This document shows positions 1,668 through 11,320 of a stretch of 64,000 nt of DNA, one piece after another (position 1 is the first letter of the stretch; each line of letters starts with the position of its first letter). Below the pieces are notes generated by a model. That model was not told the DNA's origin. It saw only the letters and a program-made list of their open reading frames with translations, and searched no databases. Source of the stretch: a virus (taxonomy: Duplodnaviria; Caudoviricetes); the IMG/VR virus record IMGVR_UViG_3300021387_000661, positions 1 to 64,000 of that record; one strand, 5' to 3'. A program made the translations under genes and the position numbers.

Positions 1668-2330
1668 ATGAAGAAACTAAATCCTTGTGTTACAGGAAGT
1701 ACCAAAGTATGGACTGTTGAAGGTGCAAAATCTTTTAAAGATCTTGCTGATGCAAATGAAGATGTGGATGTGTATTGCCTGGATGGTGATGGTAACATTA
1801 AGGTGTCAAAAATGTTTCATCCAAGGGTGTCTGGGTATAACATTGCACTTGTGAAAATAACATTGGATAATGGAACTGTACTGAAAGCATCTTCCAATCA
1901 TATGTTCCTCACAAGTGAAGGGTATGTCTCTGCTGAAGATTTGTTTGAAGGTGATGACATCATAACATTGAAGAATAATGTATCACTACCTGAAACCATT
2001 GATGAGAAGGATAAACCATTTACAGAATATACAGGCACAAAGAAAGGTACTGTTATAAAGAAATGTGAAGTATCAGGTGAAGAGTTTGAATGTGTCTGGA
2101 ATGAAAGAGAGGTCTGCACCAGGGAAGGATATGAGGCAGATCTCTATAATATTAAACTCAAGAAGGTATGTACATCTTCTGACAATTATGAATATATGAC
2201 TGTTAAAGATGTTGAATTCCTTGATGAGAGGGAAAATGTTTACAATGGTACTGTTGCAGTATATCACAATTATTTCACCATAGATGAAAAAACTAATACA
2301 ATAGTCAATCAACTTAACTGTGGTGAATAA
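1668..2330 (+). CDS. free-standing intein (Hint domain) precursor with 6-aa N-extein and 3-aa C-extein
   Basis: MKKLNP/CVTGSTKVWT (block A); LKASSNHMFLT (block B His); VYNGTVAVYHNYF (block F); terminal QLN/CGE-stop. Confidence 0.85.
   Translation: MKKLNPCVTGSTKVWTVEGAKSFKDLADANEDVDVYCLDGDGNIKVSKMFHPRVSGYNIALVKITLDNGTVLKASSNHMFLTSEGYVSAEDLFEGDDIITLKNNVSLPETIDEKDKPFTEYTGTKKGTVIKKCEVSGEEFECVWNEREVCTREGYEADLYNIKLKKVCTSSDNYEYMTVKDVEFLDERENVYNGTVAVYHNYFTIDEKTNTIVNQLNCGE
1686..2318 (+). mobile_element. mini-intein (211 aa, no recognisable LAGLIDADG/HNH endonuclease), RNR NP/CGE-site type
   Basis: Cys1 codon 1686-1688, terminal Asn codon 2316-2318, +1 Cys; joined flanks read NPCGE. Confidence 0.8.
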
Positions 2331-2359: not shown

Positions 2360-3703
2360 ATGATCAGAACAGTAATAAAACGAGATGGAACAAGTGCTCA
2401 CTTCCGTATTGAGAAGATCTACAATGTACTTGACAAGGCATTTGCTTCAAAGGAGATGGAAACTCCTGTTGAGGTATATGACTTCATCAAGGAATGGGTT
2501 GATGGTTATGAGGGAGACTCAATCAATGTTGAAGACATTCAGGACAAGATTGAGAAATACCTTATGAGATATTACCCATGTGTTGCAAAGAACTTCATCA
2601 TCTACAGGGCTGAACACAAGGCAATGAGGGAAGAGAAGAACCAACTTACCAAGGATGTGGAGAAGAAACTCCTTGCAAAGAATGTCGAGAACCAGAATGC
2701 CAATGTAGATGAAAATTCATTTGGTGGTAGAATGGGAGAAGTCACCAGGGTTGTTACAAAAGACTATGCACTCAAATATTGTATGAGTAAAAAGTCAAAG
2801 AACAATCACCTCAACAATGAGATTTATATTCATGATCTAGATTCGTATGCCGTTGGTAACCACAACTGTCTTTCAATACCTTTTGATGACCTTCTTGCAA
2901 AAGGATTCCACACCAGACAGACAGATGTAAGACCAGCCAACTCTATCAACACAGCAATGCAGCTTGTTGCTGTCATCTTCCAACTTCAGTCACTCCAGCA
3001 GTTTGGTGGAGTCTCTGCTACACATCTTGATTGGACTATGGTTCCATATGTGAAGAAGTCTTTCAGGAAACATATAAAGTCCTGGTTCAAAGATGTTGAG
3101 GGATATTCAAAAGAGGATGCGGAAAAGGTTGTGTGTGAACTTGAAGATACTTGGGGAGAACTTTGTTTTGAGAATGAAGGATTCAAAAAGAATTATCCTA
3201 AAATTTACAGATACGCATATGGTCAGACTGAATCTGAAACATATCAGGCAGTAGAAGGTATGTATCATAATTTGAATACCTTACAAAGTAGAAGTGGAAA
3301 TCAGTTGCCTTTCACATCAATCAACTATGGTACTTGTACTTCGCCAGAAGGAAGGATGGTAATACAGAAACTCCTTGAAGTATCAATTGCAGGTCTTGGT
3401 AAATTCCATAAGACTCCAATCTTTCCTTGTGGAATCTTCCAGTATATGAAAGGTGTCAATGACAAACCTGGAACACCTAATTATGATCTTTATCAACTGG
3501 CATTGAAATCTACTGCAAAGAGACTTTATCCTAATTATGCAAATGTGGATTGGTCAGGTAATACTGGAGAAGATAAGGTTAAGGATATAAAGAATGAGTT
3601 TCTTGAGAGCTTAAGTTCAGATGAAAAAAGTAAACTTTTATCTGCAATTAAAAATGATCCAAAGATTGCAGACGCATTGGGAATAAAAATAATAAATGAA
3701 TAA
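2360..3703 (+). CDS. nrdD: anaerobic (class III) ribonucleotide reductase, N-terminal polypeptide with ATP cone
   Basis: ATP cone VIKRDG; IYIHDLD...HNC; LNTLQSRSGNQLPFTSINYG; PIFP; YPNYAN; ends at TAA 3701-3703. Confidence 0.9.
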   Translation: MIRTVIKRDGTSAHFRIEKIYNVLDKAFASKEMETPVEVYDFIKEWVDGYEGDSINVEDIQDKIEKYLMRYYPCVAKNFIIYRAEHKAMREEKNQLTKDVEKKLLAKNVENQNANVDENSFGGRMGEVTRVVTKDYALKYCMSKKSKNNHLNNEIYIHDLDSYAVGNHNCLSIPFDDLLAKGFHTRQTDVRPANSINTAMQLVAVIFQLQSLQQFGGVSATHLDWTMVPYVKKSFRKHIKSWFKDVEGYSKEDAEKVVCELEDTWGELCFENEGFKKNYPKIYRYAYGQTESETYQAVEGMYHNLNTLQSRSGNQLPFTSINYGTCTSPEGRMVIQKLLEVSIAGLGKFHKTPIFPCGIFQYMKGVNDKPGTPNYDLYQLALKSTAKRLYPNYANVDWSGNTGEDKVKDIKNEFLESLSSDEKSKLLSAIKNDPKIADALGIKIINE

Positions 3704-3706
3704 TAT

Positions 3707-3763
3707 ATGGAGAAGATTTTAGCAAAAGATGACAGTCCAAAATGTTATTTCTCAACGATGGGT
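3707..3763 (+). CDS. nrdD: nrdD C-terminal polypeptide, exon 1 (MEKILAKDDSPKCYFSTMG)
   Basis: in frame with the upstream nrdD ORF after TAA-TAT; encodes YFSTMG, which joins CRT after intron removal; absent from the ORF track. Confidence 0.8.
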
Positions 3764-4635
3764 AAGTGTAAACTACAGCTCATCTAAAATCTTTTGAACC
3801 ATGCCAATGGGTATCCACATATGTGGGTTAACGGTTAGGTCCTGTAAATATTAATGCTGTTGTTTTATAGGATGAGACCGTGCCAAGAAACAAGAAACAA
3901 AAAGAATATGTATATTTACAAAATCACAAATAAAGTCAATGGTAAAGTTTATATTGGTCAGTCAATCAGACCAATTGAACAGCGATTCCAAAGACATATC
4001 AATGATGCTGTAAATAATATTCTTGACACTCATTTTGCAAGGGCAATAAGGAAATATGGAAAAGAGAATTTTTATATTGAACTTGTTGAGACTTGTGATA
4101 ACCAGACAGAACTCAATTTAAGAGAACAGTATTGGATTAGAAAATATGATAGTATCAATAATGGTTATAATGAAACAGATGCTATCAGTAAGTGTGGAGG
4201 AAACACATATATGTCCAAGACTGAAAGTGAGATGAAGGAAATTTCTGAAAAGATAAGTAAAACAAAACTTGGAAGTAAGAATCCACATTCAAGATCTGTC
4301 AAGGTTTTCAATATAGTGACAAATGAAGAAAAGGTGTTTGATACTGTAAATGATTGTAGGAAATTTTTTAATGAGAAGAATCACAGATTCATAACAACAA
4401 GGTTACAAAATCACTATATAAGAATGAGTGGAAGATTGCTTATACTGAAGATGAATACAGAGAGTTCAGTATAGGTGTTCACCGTGAAAGAACCAGGTGG
4501 GAATATCTTGTTTAAGGTGTATCGACTATCCCTGATGAATGTAAGGGAGTAGGGGTGGGACAGGCTCCACTTCGAAGCGGAAGACTACAAAAGTAGAAGA
4601 TATAGTCAGTGCCAATGGTAACATTGGATAAAATG
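3764..4635 (+). mobile_element. group I self-splicing intron (872 nt) in nrdD
   Basis: P1 GATGGGT(3757-63)/GCTCATC(3778-84) with U.G at the splice site; P7 GACTA 4524-28 with S element AAGATATAGTC 4597-4607; P9 CCAATG-GTAA-CATTGG 4612-27; omega G 4635; splicing restores STMG/CRTANG. Confidence 0.92.
3908..4474 (+). CDS. intron-encoded GIY-YIG homing endonuclease (probably frameshifted near 4402)
   Basis: MYIYKITNKVNGKVYIGQS, RFQRH, E.YWI...NGYN catalytic motifs; NUMOD-like tail. Confidence 0.85.
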   Translation: MYIYKITNKVNGKVYIGQSIRPIEQRFQRHINDAVNNILDTHFARAIRKYGKENFYIELVETCDNQTELNLREQYWIRKYDSINNGYNETDAISKCGGNTYMSKTESEMKEISEKISKTKLGSKNPHSRSVKVFNIVTNEEKVFDTVNDCRKFFNEKNHRFITTRLQNHYIRMSGRLLILKMNTESSV

Positions 4636-5655
4636 TGTAGAACAGCTAATGGATGGGATGCAAACTGGGAGGAATCCTGGAAGAATGCAGTCAAGACAGT
4701 CATTGAGACTGGTAAGTTAAATACTAATGTGCTGGAATCAGCAAGAGCAAAGGATGGTAGGGGAAACATCTGTCCTGTAACCATCATTATGCCTACTCTT
4801 GCTATGGAAGCAGACAGGGATGTTGAGAAATTTATGAAACTCCTTGACAAGAAGATTGGTGAAGCAAAGGATATGCTCATTGAAAGATTTGAGTGGATTT
4901 GTTCACAGTCTCCAAAGTCTGCTGACTTTATGTATATAAATGGTACAATGGCAGGTTATGTTCCTGAAGAAGGTATCAGGTCTGCTTTGAAGCATGGAAC
5001 TTTGGTTATTGGCCAGCTTGGTCTTGCTGAAACTCTTCAACTTTTGATTGGTAAGAACCAATGCACAGAGGAAGGTATGGAACTTGCAAAGAGAATTGAG
5101 CAGTTATTTAAAGACAGATGTGCAGAATATAAACAGAAATATAGTCTCAACTTTGGTGTTTATTATACACCTGCTGAAAATCTTTGTTATACTGCACTTA
5201 AGAAGTTCCGTGATAAGTATGGTGTGATTGAGAATGTGTCTGACAGGGAATATTTCACCAACAGCATCCATGTTCCTGTATGGGAGAAGGTAACTCCATT
5301 TGAGAAAATTGACATTGAGTCACAGTTGACTGGATACAGTTCAGCAGGTTGTATCACTTATGTTGAACTCCCTTCAACAGTACTTCATAACATTGAGGCA
5401 CTTGAGACTATTGTTAATTATGCCATGGACCATGACATCCCTTACTTTGCAGTCAATACACCAAATGACCTTTGTACCAATTGTGGATATCAGGGTGAAC
5501 TTGGTGAGACTTGCCCTCAATGTGGAAGTTCAAAAATAGACAGACTTCGTAGAGTCACCGGATATTTGACTGGAAATTATTTGACAGCATTTAATCTTGG
5601 AAAGCAGGATGAGGTTAAGGATAGAGTAAAACATAATAAAGAGATAATAGTTTAA
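4636..5655 (+). CDS. nrdD: nrdD C-terminal polypeptide, exon 2
   Basis: CRT catalytic Cys, GRGNI, TPAENL, YFTNS.H, CTNCG...CPQCG Zn site, glycyl-radical loop RRVTGYL. Confidence 0.92.
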   Translation, partial: CRTANGWDANWEESWKNAVKTVIETGKLNTNVLESARAKDGRGNICPVTIIMPTLAMEADRDVEKFMKLLDKKIGEAKDMLIERFEWICSQSPKSADFMYINGTMAGYVPEEGIRSALKHGTLVIGQLGLAETLQLLIGKNQCTEEGMELAKRIEQLFKDRCAEYKQKYSLNFGVYYTPAENLCYTALKKFRDKYGVIENVSDREYFTNSIHVPVWEKVTPFEKIDIESQLTGYSSAGCITYVELPSTVLHNIEALETIVNYAMDHDIPYFAVNTPNDLCTNCGYQGELGETCPQCGSSKIDRLRRVTGYLTGNYLTAFNLGKQDEVKDRVKHNKEIIV

Positions 5656-5657
5656 TT

Positions 5658-6140
5658 ATGAAATATGAGAGTATTACTACATCAGATGTAAATAATGGAT
5701 TGGGTTGCAGGGTTACCTGTTGGATTAGTGGTTGTACTCATCATTGTAAAGGTTGCCACAATAGAAAGACCTGGAGTTTTAATTCTGGAAGGATATATAA
5801 CCAAAATGTTGAGGATGTTCTTTTCAATGAGATTGATAAACCATATATCAAAGGTTTGACATTGAGTGGCGGTGACCCCCTTGACAGTCCTGATGGTGTA
5901 CTGGAACTTCTTCAACATTTCAGAGAAAGGTTTGGAAGCACAAAGGATGTGTGGATCTATACAGGATACACTTATGAATACTGTAAGGAACACTTTCCAG
6001 AAATCCTTGAATTATCAGACATTCTGGTAGATGGGATGTATGAATGTACAAAGAGAGACACATCACTGGCATTCAGAGGAAGTTCAAACCAGAGAATCAT
6101 TGATTTGAAGACTGGTGAAGACATCAGTTCAAAGTTATAA
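5658..6140 (+). CDS. nrdG: anaerobic RNR activating enzyme (radical SAM)
   Basis: GCTHHCKGCHN (CxxxCxxC), LSGGDPL, WIYTGY, FRGSSNQ; directly after nrdD. Confidence 0.93.
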   Translation: MKYESITTSDVNNGLGCRVTCWISGCTHHCKGCHNRKTWSFNSGRIYNQNVEDVLFNEIDKPYIKGLTLSGGDPLDSPDGVLELLQHFRERFGSTKDVWIYTGYTYEYCKEHFPEILELSDILVDGMYECTKRDTSLAFRGSSNQRIIDLKTGEDISSKL

Positions 6141-6143
6141 ATG

Positions 6144-6176
6144 AAATTGGGGAGATGATTAAGTCTCCCCAATTTT
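6144..6176 (+). terminator. intrinsic terminator after nrdG
   Basis: AAATTGGGGAGA/TCTCCCCAATTT stem. Confidence 0.8.
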
Positions 6177-6191
6177 GTTATTTTTAATGTT

Positions 6192-10003: not shown

Positions 10004-11320
10004 ATGAAATTTGAATTTGATCATAAGACAGGTATGATGAGACCAAAGAAGGATGAGGAAATTTATTTTGCCAAGTCACAAGGTGGTGGTCTCATTGTTG
10101 ATGATAAGAAGAATGATATCAAATATATCATTGAAAGAGATGAAAGAATAACAAAACTCTTTGGAAGTTTTGATAAAGATAATCTCAATCTTTATGATAT
10201 GAGGAATGCAAGGATGATTGCAGACAGGGTTGTCAGATTATTTGGTAGAGATCATAAGTACACAGATTATCATTATTTCCTTAAGGGTTATCATATGAAT
10301 GAGAATTTTGTCCAGAAAATGAGTGATTTTTTGGATGAATCTGTTTGGGGTGATATTAGAAGAAGAGGTAATGGTTCTGTGGAAGATATTAAAAAGGAAG
10401 ATGGTGAAATAATTGGAAAATTGGAAGATGGTACAATTCTGATAATGTCAAGAGATGCCTTTGCTGATGGAGATATTATTGATTTTAATGGTAGTAAAAT
10501 TTATACTTTTAATGAATCTGGAGATGAACCTATTTATGTTGCAGTCATATCAGATGGTAAGACAGATGTTTATTATAAGTATGATGAAGATTCAGAAGAT
10601 ACTGTAAATATGGTGAGATGTTTTGAGGCTGATTCTACAATTAGAAAAATCAATGATTTTGGTTCATTGAGAGCGATTATGAATCAAGATGAATGGGATG
10701 ATAATGATTATTTTGATGGACTTGAGATTGACTGTCATGAAAATTGTACCATTTTTAAGATTGATGGTTTTTATGAATTCTCTGTATATGAGAATAGAGA
10801 CAGTGCAATAGATGATGCTGTTGATATGGAAGAGGATTTGCTTGATTCAACTACTTTTACCAAAAAAGATGTTGAACGTTTTAGAAATGTATTGGGGGAT
10901 GATTTTTTAGATGAAAAACAAATGAAGGAAGACCTTAAGGAAAGTCAGGAGACTTATTATGATGAATTAGATGAGGATGATGCCATTGATGAATTATTAA
11001 GAATGGAAATAATTGAAGATTCTGAAGATTATTTTGATGTTGATGAGTATGGAGATATAGATCATTCTCTTCCAAAGTTTGATTATAATGATTATAAAGA
11101 TGCATATGTTGAAAAATACATAGATGGTATTAGTGACTATATTGATGAATATATTTCTAATTTTGGATATGATGGTATAGAATCATATATTGATACAAGG
11201 AAACTTGCAGAAAAGATTATAGAAGCAGATGGTCCAGAATGTGAAATAGCATCATATGATAGTGTTGAGAGGGAAGAGAGAATAGATTATATCACATATT
11301 ACATATATAGAAGGAATTAA
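10004..11320 (+). CDS. very acidic hypothetical protein, probably virion-associated
   Basis: 438-aa D/E-rich ORF after CATAAATA at 9977; internal KMSDFLDES motif. Confidence 0.65.
   Translation: MKFEFDHKTGMMRPKKDEEIYFAKSQGGGLIVDDKKNDIKYIIERDERITKLFGSFDKDNLNLYDMRNARMIADRVVRLFGRDHKYTDYHYFLKGYHMNENFVQKMSDFLDESVWGDIRRRGNGSVEDIKKEDGEIIGKLEDGTILIMSRDAFADGDIIDFNGSKIYTFNESGDEPIYVAVISDGKTDVYYKYDEDSEDTVNMVRCFEADSTIRKINDFGSLRAIMNQDEWDDNDYFDGLEIDCHENCTIFKIDGFYEFSVYENRDSAIDDAVDMEEDLLDSTTFTKKDVERFRNVLGDDFLDEKQMKEDLKESQETYYDELDEDDAIDELLRMEIIEDSEDYFDVDEYGDIDHSLPKFDYNDYKDAYVEKYIDGISDYIDEYISNFGYDGIESYIDTRKLAEKIIEADGPECEIASYDSVEREERIDYITYYIYRRN

Follow-up and report, generated by a model that had tools for sequence, protein, structure and literature searches.

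Several phages encode the catalytic chain of a ribonucleotide reductase (RNR) in pieces. In Aeromonas phage Aeh1 the class Ia enzyme consists of NrdA-a and NrdA-b, a case of 'genes-in-pieces' (Friedrich 2007 as cited in PMC3653736), and the tails at the break are essential for activity (Crona 2011, PMC3045599). A split class II enzyme, NrdJa/NrdJb, with a gap of 12 nucleotides (nt) is found in Thermus phage phiYS40 (PMC3653736). For class III, fragmented nrdD genes were reported in phages phiAS4 and 949 (PMC3653736) and in 95 of 104 Jug jumbo gut phages, one junction of which lacked splicing reads (PMC12880540). The nrdD junctions known from phages include some without an intron or intein (PMC3653736, PMC12880540), and splicing of introns has been reported in other jumbo-phage nrdD genes (PMC12880540). 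A biochemical study of a split NrdD was not found in the literature. Here we describe the nrdD locus in a 64,000-nt stretch of phage DNA (Caudoviricetes; positions 1-64,000 of IMG/VR record IMGVR_UViG_3300021387_000661). This whole stretch is called the window, and all coordinates below refer to it; related loci and proteins carry handles such as L003 or P0003.

The locus contains two adjacent genes, nrdD-N and nrdD-C, the second of which is interrupted by a group I intron (Table 1). We consider it likely that the two encode a working two-chain class III enzyme, the only RNR of the phage, expressed from one operon with nrdG; reinitiation of translation, assembly of the chains and enzyme activity are what we infer from the sequence and its relatives. 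In the mechanism we propose, NrdD-N would bring in the ATP-cone, the first half-barrel, which holds Asn169-Cys170, and a tail of three helices and a final beta-strand. NrdD-C would begin with a beta-strand and the finger loop that holds the radical Cys, continue with a helical insertion and the second half-barrel, and end with the glycyl-radical loop and a Zn ribbon. Translation of NrdD-C would restart 3 nt past the NrdD-N stop, and a sunY-like group I intron, located exactly between the finger-loop Gly and Cys codons, would have to splice itself out to connect its 19-codon first exon with the remainder. The two chains would then re-form a hairpin, with the tail helices packing on the second insertion and the ten-stranded barrel closing around the finger loop. 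The arrangement may have spread by intron homing with co-conversion of the flanking exons.

Stop, restart and selection on both pieces

An earlier sequence-only reading of the window had noticed that nrdD stops at a TAA (3701-3703) and restarts in the same frame (TAT, then ATG at 3707), and had compared this with TAATATG stop/start junctions at 11318, 25932 and 37940. Stop, restart and all three junctions are indeed present; the nrdD junction itself is TAATATATG, with a spacer of 3 nt as compared to 1 nt in the TAATATG junctions. The stop and restart are conserved in L003, L004, L005, L006, L045, L092 and L093, and TAA-TAT-ATG is identical in the contigs of L003, L004, L005, L092 and L093, which come from different samples. 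L006 reads TAA TAA AGT ATG, a double stop that leaves 6 nt between the halves and keeps the frame. In L045, whose N core is about 57% identical, the first piece terminates with TGA, followed by a 49-nt spacer with an AGGAGG and a start, MRILAKKDSPLCYFSTMG, in another frame; the L045 tail and mini-exon are homologous to those of the window and are followed by the same intron with an endonuclease of the same type. The restart ATG is invariant among all split relatives. Moreover, N pieces of 447-481 amino acids (aa) form seven clusters in the protein database, which are 77-90% identical over their full length and all end in ...IINE.

The window stems from an uncultivated virus record, and the stop codon could have been an error of sequencing or assembly in a metagenome contig. 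This is refuted, and its probability is negligible, because stop and restart recur in at least eight independent assemblies, which stem from different samples and from several sources (ENA, Logan, JGI, IMG/VR), and the sequence around the junction varies among them. Alternatively, the two open reading frames (ORFs) could be joined into one chain by readthrough of the TAA, by ribosome hopping or by removal of a very small spliced element, for which the same-frame restart 3 nt past the stop and the equally frame-neutral 3-nt insertion of L006 would speak. The two consecutive TAA codons of L006, together with the spacer, the frame change and the AGGAGG before the ATG in L045, however, argue against readthrough or hopping as a conserved mode of expression. 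TAA is furthermore the commonest ordinary stop of the window (28 of the 42 plus-strand ORFs of at least 100 aa end with it), and the ATG is invariant among the split relatives, so that we regard joining as highly improbable. Reassignment of the stop codon was rejected as well: TAA, TGA and TAG all terminate ordinary ORFs in the window. Because just 5 of the 42 plus-strand ORFs possess a Shine-Dalgarno-like 4-mer and many genes follow one another across short stop-start junctions, a restart at an AT-rich junction is normal for this genome; the nrdD-C leader is AT-rich and free of a Shine-Dalgarno site like the rest of it.

The catalytic residues are distributed over both pieces, as the sequence-only reading had proposed when it placed the HNC cysteine on a 447-aa piece and the radical Cys plus the glycyl loop on a 358-aa piece. 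N169-C170 is present, invariant and aligns to the TNCC of T4 NrdD (N78-C79), the finger-loop Cys is the first codon of exon 2, and the glycine of RVTGY is in place. The Asn of KDGRGN aligns to T4 N311, RRVTGYL aligns to the T4 RRTC(A580)YL in 1H78, and nrdD-C has the Zn ribbon cysteines (CTNCGY...CPQCG). In T4 NrdD we take N78-C79, C290 of the finger loop, N311 and the glycyl radical at G580 to be the functional residues. In Pfam, nrdD-N matches ATP-cone (3.1e-15) and NRDD (3.3e-64, 218 bits, profile positions 2-251), and exon 2 of nrdD-C matches NRDD (1.5e-81, 275 bits, profile positions 272-562) and Gly_radical (2.8e-09); the curated cut-off of NRDD (PF13597) is 26.2 bits. The first piece aligns to residues 5-402 of PDB 8P23, and exon 2 aligns to residues 432-738 of the same structure and to residues 306-604 of T4 1H78. 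By its NRDD profile, the catalytic residues on both pieces and the adjacent NrdG the locus belongs to class III; what sets it apart is that it does not encode a single polypeptide. The genome (344,746 bp, 94% complete) has a single nrdD and one RNR, and a class I or II large subunit was not found in it.

One could still read the two ORFs as remnants of a decaying pseudogene in a phage that relies on the NrdD of its host. In favour of this are a stop codon within a normally single gene, the frameshift in the intron endonuclease gene of the window and the intact single-chain gene kept by close relatives (P0003, 95% identical). The substitution pattern points the other way. We calculated the ratio of nonsynonymous to synonymous changes (dN/dS) by the Nei-Gojobori method among the split lineages (the window, L003 and L004; dS about 0.7-1.5) and obtained 0.07-0.10 for the N core, 0.07-0.095 for the C core, 0.27 for the tail, 0.08 for the mini-exon and 0.135 for insertion 2. 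On these ratios, 0.07-0.27 at a dS of about 1, every part is under purifying selection, including those that occur in the cassette only (see below). In the comparison with L045 the synonymous sites are saturated, and dN is 0.14-0.53. In addition, stop and start are kept down to 57% identity, in L045 with a Shine-Dalgarno site of their own, the catalytic motifs are all intact, and the enzyme is the sole RNR of the genome. Decay is thus very unlikely.

Position of the break and predicted fit of the halves

The closest relatives in the N core (P0003 at 95%; L009, L010 and L012) are single-chain and free of an intron, and they read NVDWSGNAGYDRNDPCTYFSTMGCRTxNGxDINGLGQRKDGRGN across the finger loop. 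Compared with them, the window is longer by 51 codons ahead of the finger loop, with the stop and restart among them, and by about 23 codons behind it. Homologues of both insertions are found in more distant NrdDs (L015/L021, L022 and L028) in one unbroken frame and without an intron; insertion 2 is missing from the plain relatives and co-occurs with insertion 1 in the same relatives. Because other NrdDs carry the insertions unsplit, we regard the helical insertion as a feature of the lineage and the fission as a stop and start created inside it. The sequence-only reading had located the break in a helical insertion between NVDWSGN and the YFSTMG loop. This location holds; the point itself can now be refined to the turn of a predicted beta-hairpin, the insertion also exists unsplit, and a second insertion had been overlooked.

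The refinement comes from two AlphaFold2 (AF2) models. That of the unsplit L022 (mean predicted local distance difference test score, pLDDT, of 70; 82-90 over insertion helices 2-3 and the hairpin) shows three helices, a hairpin (E432-435 / turn D436-G437 / E438-441), the finger loop and a helix at 461-478. The other is a read-through model of the N piece of the window with the mini-exon (mean pLDDT 71), in which helices at H404-417, H420-432 and H434-440 are followed by a strand at 442-447 (IKIINE), a turn formed by the stop position 448 and Y449, and a strand at 450-455 (MEKILA). Since both models place the break at the hairpin turn, it is predicted to separate the first half-barrel from the finger loop and the second half-barrel. 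RNRs share the topology of a ten-stranded barrel. In PDB 8P23, the closest solved NrdD by sequence, the finger-loop region spans only about 30 residues, so that this structure is without both insertions. To our knowledge, every class III RNR structure solved so far consists of a single chain.

The N piece was modelled in complex with exon 2, leaving out the 19 N-terminal residues of NrdD-C encoded by the mini-exon. The model reached a score of 0.87 (best of three controls 0.00), a mark that is reached by 58 of 80 solved complexes and by 2 of 110 mismatched pairs; in part, this score may mirror single-chain NrdD structures already known to the predictor. Contacts, of which 286-301 are predicted, are reproduced between runs to at least 93%, with a partner pLDDT of at least 82. 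The predicted interface includes tail residues 403-441, spaced with helical periodicity, and residues 1-37 of exon 2, a range that takes in insertion 2. Because single-chain NrdD structures are solved, the barrel part of the interface was possibly reproduced from them and would then show likeness only. With this reservation, the model supports binding of the two halves.

Both pieces could also be made and yet not form a normal reductase, for example if the N piece acted as a lone nucleotide-binding regulator or if the pieces worked with NrdD subunits of the host. Expression as two chains would permit independent dosage, and purifying selection shows usefulness, not role. The catalytic residues are, however, conserved together on both pieces, the pieces are always adjacent and beside nrdG, the predicted interface is extensive, and the tail and insertion 2 always co-occur. 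We consider such a use unlikely and retain the two-chain reductase as the preferred reading.

The intron, the mobile cassette and the operon

The 19-aa exon, the 872-nt group I intron at MG/CR and the subsequent CRTANG, all of them claimed before, were found where expected. The last exon base is a T (3763), the terminal intron G lies at 4635, and exon 2 opens with TGT AGA at 4636, which gives nrdD-C a total of 19 + 339 = 358 aa. The internal guide sequence CTACA-GCTCAT (3773-3783) allows both pairings: the last six bases of the mini-exon, ATGGGT (3758-3763), form the 5' strand of P1 (AUGGGU/GCUCAU, guide 3778-3783) with a U.G wobble at the 5' splice site, and the first five bases of exon 2 form P10 with the other part of the guide (UGUAG/CUACA, 3773-3777). 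Compensatory guide variants occur in relatives (GCCCAU; exon UGCAG with guide CUGUA). In a core alignment of 14 related introns we counted 63 consensus pairs, with 96% of the cells canonical and two-sided changes in 37 pairs; alignment (ORF loops removed) and fold were built within this analysis, so that the counts lean towards the structure. A 32-nt stretch at 4523-4554 is identical to the T4 nrdD (sunY) intron, and a megablast search against phage records returned this stretch as its only match. A search of Rfam for group I introns gave no hit for the whole region and none for an ORF-less 290-nt relative. Model RF00028 appears insensitive to this intron subgroup, and because a sub-threshold match was all that Rfam returned, we relied on our own alignment and covariation counts.

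An intron at exactly the MG|CR site is present in 17 other loci among 88 related loci, and near-identical nrdD alleles occur with and without it, some N cores being identical between both kinds. The intron is presumably spliced out in vivo. The claim that the second part exists only after splicing is strictly true for L004, in which a TAA stands in frame two codons ahead of the Cys codon, so that the catalytic Cys is translated only after splicing. It is less strict for the window, in which the last three intron bases form an in-frame ATG and the reading frame alone would allow an unspliced M-CRTANG product. A start of the C piece in the 3' end of the intron (GTG 4609, ATG 4615 or ATG 4633) is possible by frame in the window and was rejected: it would lose the conserved YFSTMG, L004 has no start codon between the in-frame TAA and the Cys codon, and the introns of L030, L063 and L090 end in ACG and not in ATG.

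Other elements sit at the same place. In L026 (IMGVR_UViG_3300013383_000058) the Gly|Cys junction STMG|CRT, occupied by the intron in the window, holds an intein of about 350 aa (CHAKN...VTHN), which begins near position 5700 of L026. In Thomasclavelia phage TR-TP2 (L001, PQ571310.1; 5250-6131) nrdD is annotated as two coding sequences plus an HNH endonuclease; by its reading frame this looks like a different, HNH-bearing intron 4 nt upstream of MG|CR, within the ATG of STMG, whose splice was missed by the GenBank annotation. With an intron, an intein and an HNH intron there, the MG|CR codon pair is a hot spot for mobile elements.

The comparison of the window with L003 shows how the break travels. 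Positions 3560-4880, which comprise the tail, the mini-exon, the intron with its endonuclease gene, insertion 2 and slightly more, are 96-100% identical to L003, and the flanks are 80-90% identical. The dS values follow the same division, with 0.2 for the tail, 0.24 for the mini-exon and 0 for insertion 2, as against 1.09 for the N core and 0.78 for the C core. Both borders of this tract fall on invariant motifs, NVDWSGN and KDGRGNICP. In L092 and L093 the same tail and mini-exon recur at 96-97% identity, and the backbone of L093 is of a different type. The intron interior of L093 (Ga0247609_10008757) differs from that of the window past the first ~40 nt (65% identity), and since the cassette exons are the same, intron interiors are apparently exchanged as well. 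The nrdD backbone itself is a mosaic, 3080-3320 matching L010/L012 at 93-96% and L003 and L009 only at 55-88%, which suggests that recombination among these phages is frequent. On a quick IQ-TREE phylogeny of the N core the five split rows are interleaved with plain alleles and need at least four changes. Placement on this tree is unsure for L045, L028 and L015/L021, which have long branches; L022 and L028 come out near the window on long or weakly supported branches.

By this pattern both insertions, the split, and the intron together with its endonuclease gene behave as a single cassette of about 1.3 kb, which nrdD alleles exchange with one another. Because the cassette is 96-100% identical in backbones that are only 80-90% identical, the fission seems to spread laterally with the intron. 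In the simplest reading, and by the most likely route, it would travel within the stretch that is co-converted with the intron; that exons next to T4 introns are co-converted during homing has been described (PMC2988022). One may go further and propose a transmissible gene fission, in which a co-converted break and two helical insertions as a built-in assembly module would turn a single-chain NrdD into a two-chain, intron-dependent enzyme in one event of homing or recombination, a proposal to which we give slightly less than even chances. A relative that is split and intron-less, or a close unsplit one with tail and intron, did not turn up among the relatives searched. With the tail alone, a single-sequence query had no match in IMG/VR, and a four-row alignment matched L045 alone in IMG/VR and, among the JGI metagenomes, two loci.

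The intron gene itself encodes a GIY-YIG endonuclease with the canonical start MYIYKITNKVNGKVYIGQS, in a frame open from 3854. A 10-nt deletion near 4403, between short direct repeats, shifts this frame, so that the last ~34 residues differ from those of the 205-aa proteins encoded by L003 and L004, by protein as well as DNA comparison; the full-length ORF is therefore not intact, and the copy in the window is probably degenerating and inactive.

Several of our observations weigh against the two-chain enzyme and its spread by homing. The host presumably has an NrdD of its own, so that the phage enzyme would not be strictly essential. Part of the selection on the backbones, which recombine, was possibly acquired in unsplit alleles; only the tail, the mini-exon and insertion 2 surely evolved in the split state, and all three are short. 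The two AF2 models are moderate in quality (pLDDT 70-71), with a poorly modelled finger loop. The match of the 3' intron part to RF00028 (17.1 bits, E 0.025) lies below the gathering score, with a threshold of 50. Homing from the window copy is doubtful because its endonuclease gene is frameshifted, and the role of the endonuclease stays conjectural because ordinary recombination between co-infecting phages gives the same pattern. Since the break is conserved under selection and moves with the intron between phage genes, we still read the locus as a maintained split enzyme and not as a dead gene.

The features of the locus are compiled in Table 1. nrdG is intact, and its synteny with nrdD is kept in all relatives. 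A plus-strand scan between 2330 and 6140 found no terminator comparable to the one behind nrdG, the sole other match being a 5-pair stem at 4963-4980 inside exon 2. Directly upstream of nrdD lies a free-standing Hint/intein-like ORF of 220 aa (1668-2330, plus strand; Pfam Intein_splicing 8.5e-13), which is syntenic in all close relatives with split or unsplit nrdD (L003, L004, L009 and L010). The motif CATAAATA occurs 20 times in the window, with 7.2 copies expected, and one copy at 1599 is located upstream of the Hint-nrdD-nrdG unit.

Table 1. The split nrdD locus and the adjoining nrdG, in window coordinates.
Feature	Position	Strand	Description
nrdD-N	2360..3703	+	447 aa; ATP-cone (aa 4-87), first half-barrel with H168-N169-C170, C-terminal tail; stop TAA 3701-3703
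Insertion 1 (tail of the N piece, aa 402-447)	3563..3700	+	three predicted helices, then beta-strand IKIINE
Fission point	3701..3706	+	stop TAA and 3-nt spacer TAT; corresponds to the 2-residue turn of a predicted beta-hairpin
Mini-exon (nrdD-C codons 1-19)	3707..3763	+	MEKILAKDDSPKCYFSTMG; second hairpin strand and N-side of the finger loop
Group I intron	3764..4635	+	872 nt; IA2-like core, related to the T4 nrdD/sunY intron
GIY-YIG homing endonuclease gene	3908..4474	+	inside the intron; Pfam GIY-YIG (PF01541) 7.4e-12
nrdD-C exon 2	4636..5655	+	339 aa and stop; radical Cys (first codon), insertion 2, second half-barrel, RVTGY glycyl-radical loop, Zn ribbon
Insertion 2 (exon-2 aa 7-38)	4654..4749	+	helical; ~23 aa longer than the plain form, ...NWEESWKNAVKTVIETGKLNTNVLESARA
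nrdG	5658..6140	+	activating radical S-adenosylmethionine (radical-SAM) enzyme; starts 2 nt past nrdD-C; Pfam Fer4_12 5.8e-47 and Radical_SAM
Terminator-like hairpin	6140..6179	+	17 pairs, then a T run; closes the transcription unit

Comparison with known systems

The principle of genes in pieces and fragmented phage nrdD genes were known before; what the present locus adds is the break point, its structural logic, its evolutionary maintenance and the link to a mobile intron. If our reading is right, a glycyl-radical active site can be assembled from two proteins with the break just one hairpin away from the radical cysteine, and the locus would provide a natural test bed for the positioning of the finger loop. 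The mosaic pattern moreover suggests that mobile introns carry changes of protein architecture along, and gene architecture, beyond the intron alone, would then move horizontally among phages. For annotation, we suggest that such loci are called two-chain nrdD with intron and not pseudogenes or 'fragments'.

Split class II enzymes of the NrdJa/NrdJb type exist also in Pseudomonas aeruginosa. They resemble the window enzyme in that two neighbouring ORFs, separated by a very short gap, together encode a single catalytic chain of an RNR; they differ in class and break point and in being without an intron, and no mobile cassette was described for them. The fragmented nrdD genes of phiAS4, phage 949 and the Jug phages are broken elsewhere and into pieces of other lengths (230 aa and 91 aa, for example, in Jug), and analyses of selection, structural position or lateral spread did not accompany them.

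The intron has its nearest counterpart in the sunY intron of T4. The cores are homologous and share the guide GCUCAU, P7.1, the GAAGAUAUAGUC motif, P9 and the 32 identical nt. The possibility that the intron occupies the T4 site was rejected, as the T4 intron lies about 110 codons upstream (AYE|YEVNTL), compared with MG|CR in the finger loop here. Its ORF is located 3' of the core, whereas that of the window intron sits in the loop before P7, and T4 NrdD is a single chain. The 5' exon ends that pair with the shared guide, at about 2400 in T4 (L002) and at 3758-3763 in the window, differ by one base (AUGAGU versus AUGGGU) and belong to different places of nrdD. An old transposition to a look-alike site would fit this.

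Among the systems known to us as split enzymes, the window NrdD would work most like NrdA-a/NrdA-b of Aeh1. In both, a catalytic RNR subunit is encoded as two adjacent genes, the active site is, or here would be, reassembled, and extra C- and N-terminal tails are present at the break. Aeh1 NrdA belongs to class I, whereas the window enzyme is of class III. In Aeh1 the split is due to a free-standing HNH endonuclease gene, mobE, which still lies between the halves and with whose insertion the tails arose. Here no gene separates the halves, which are 3 nt apart in the window, 6 nt in L006 and 49 nt in L045; the endonuclease gene is found inside the intron, which starts 57 nt downstream of the restart. 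The tails are predicted to be the two strands of a hairpin in an insertion that pre-existed unsplit, and the second half needs RNA splicing in addition. Thus, the locus would extend 'genes-in-pieces' from class I, as in Aeh1, to class III with another origin, namely a break inside a pre-existing insertion.

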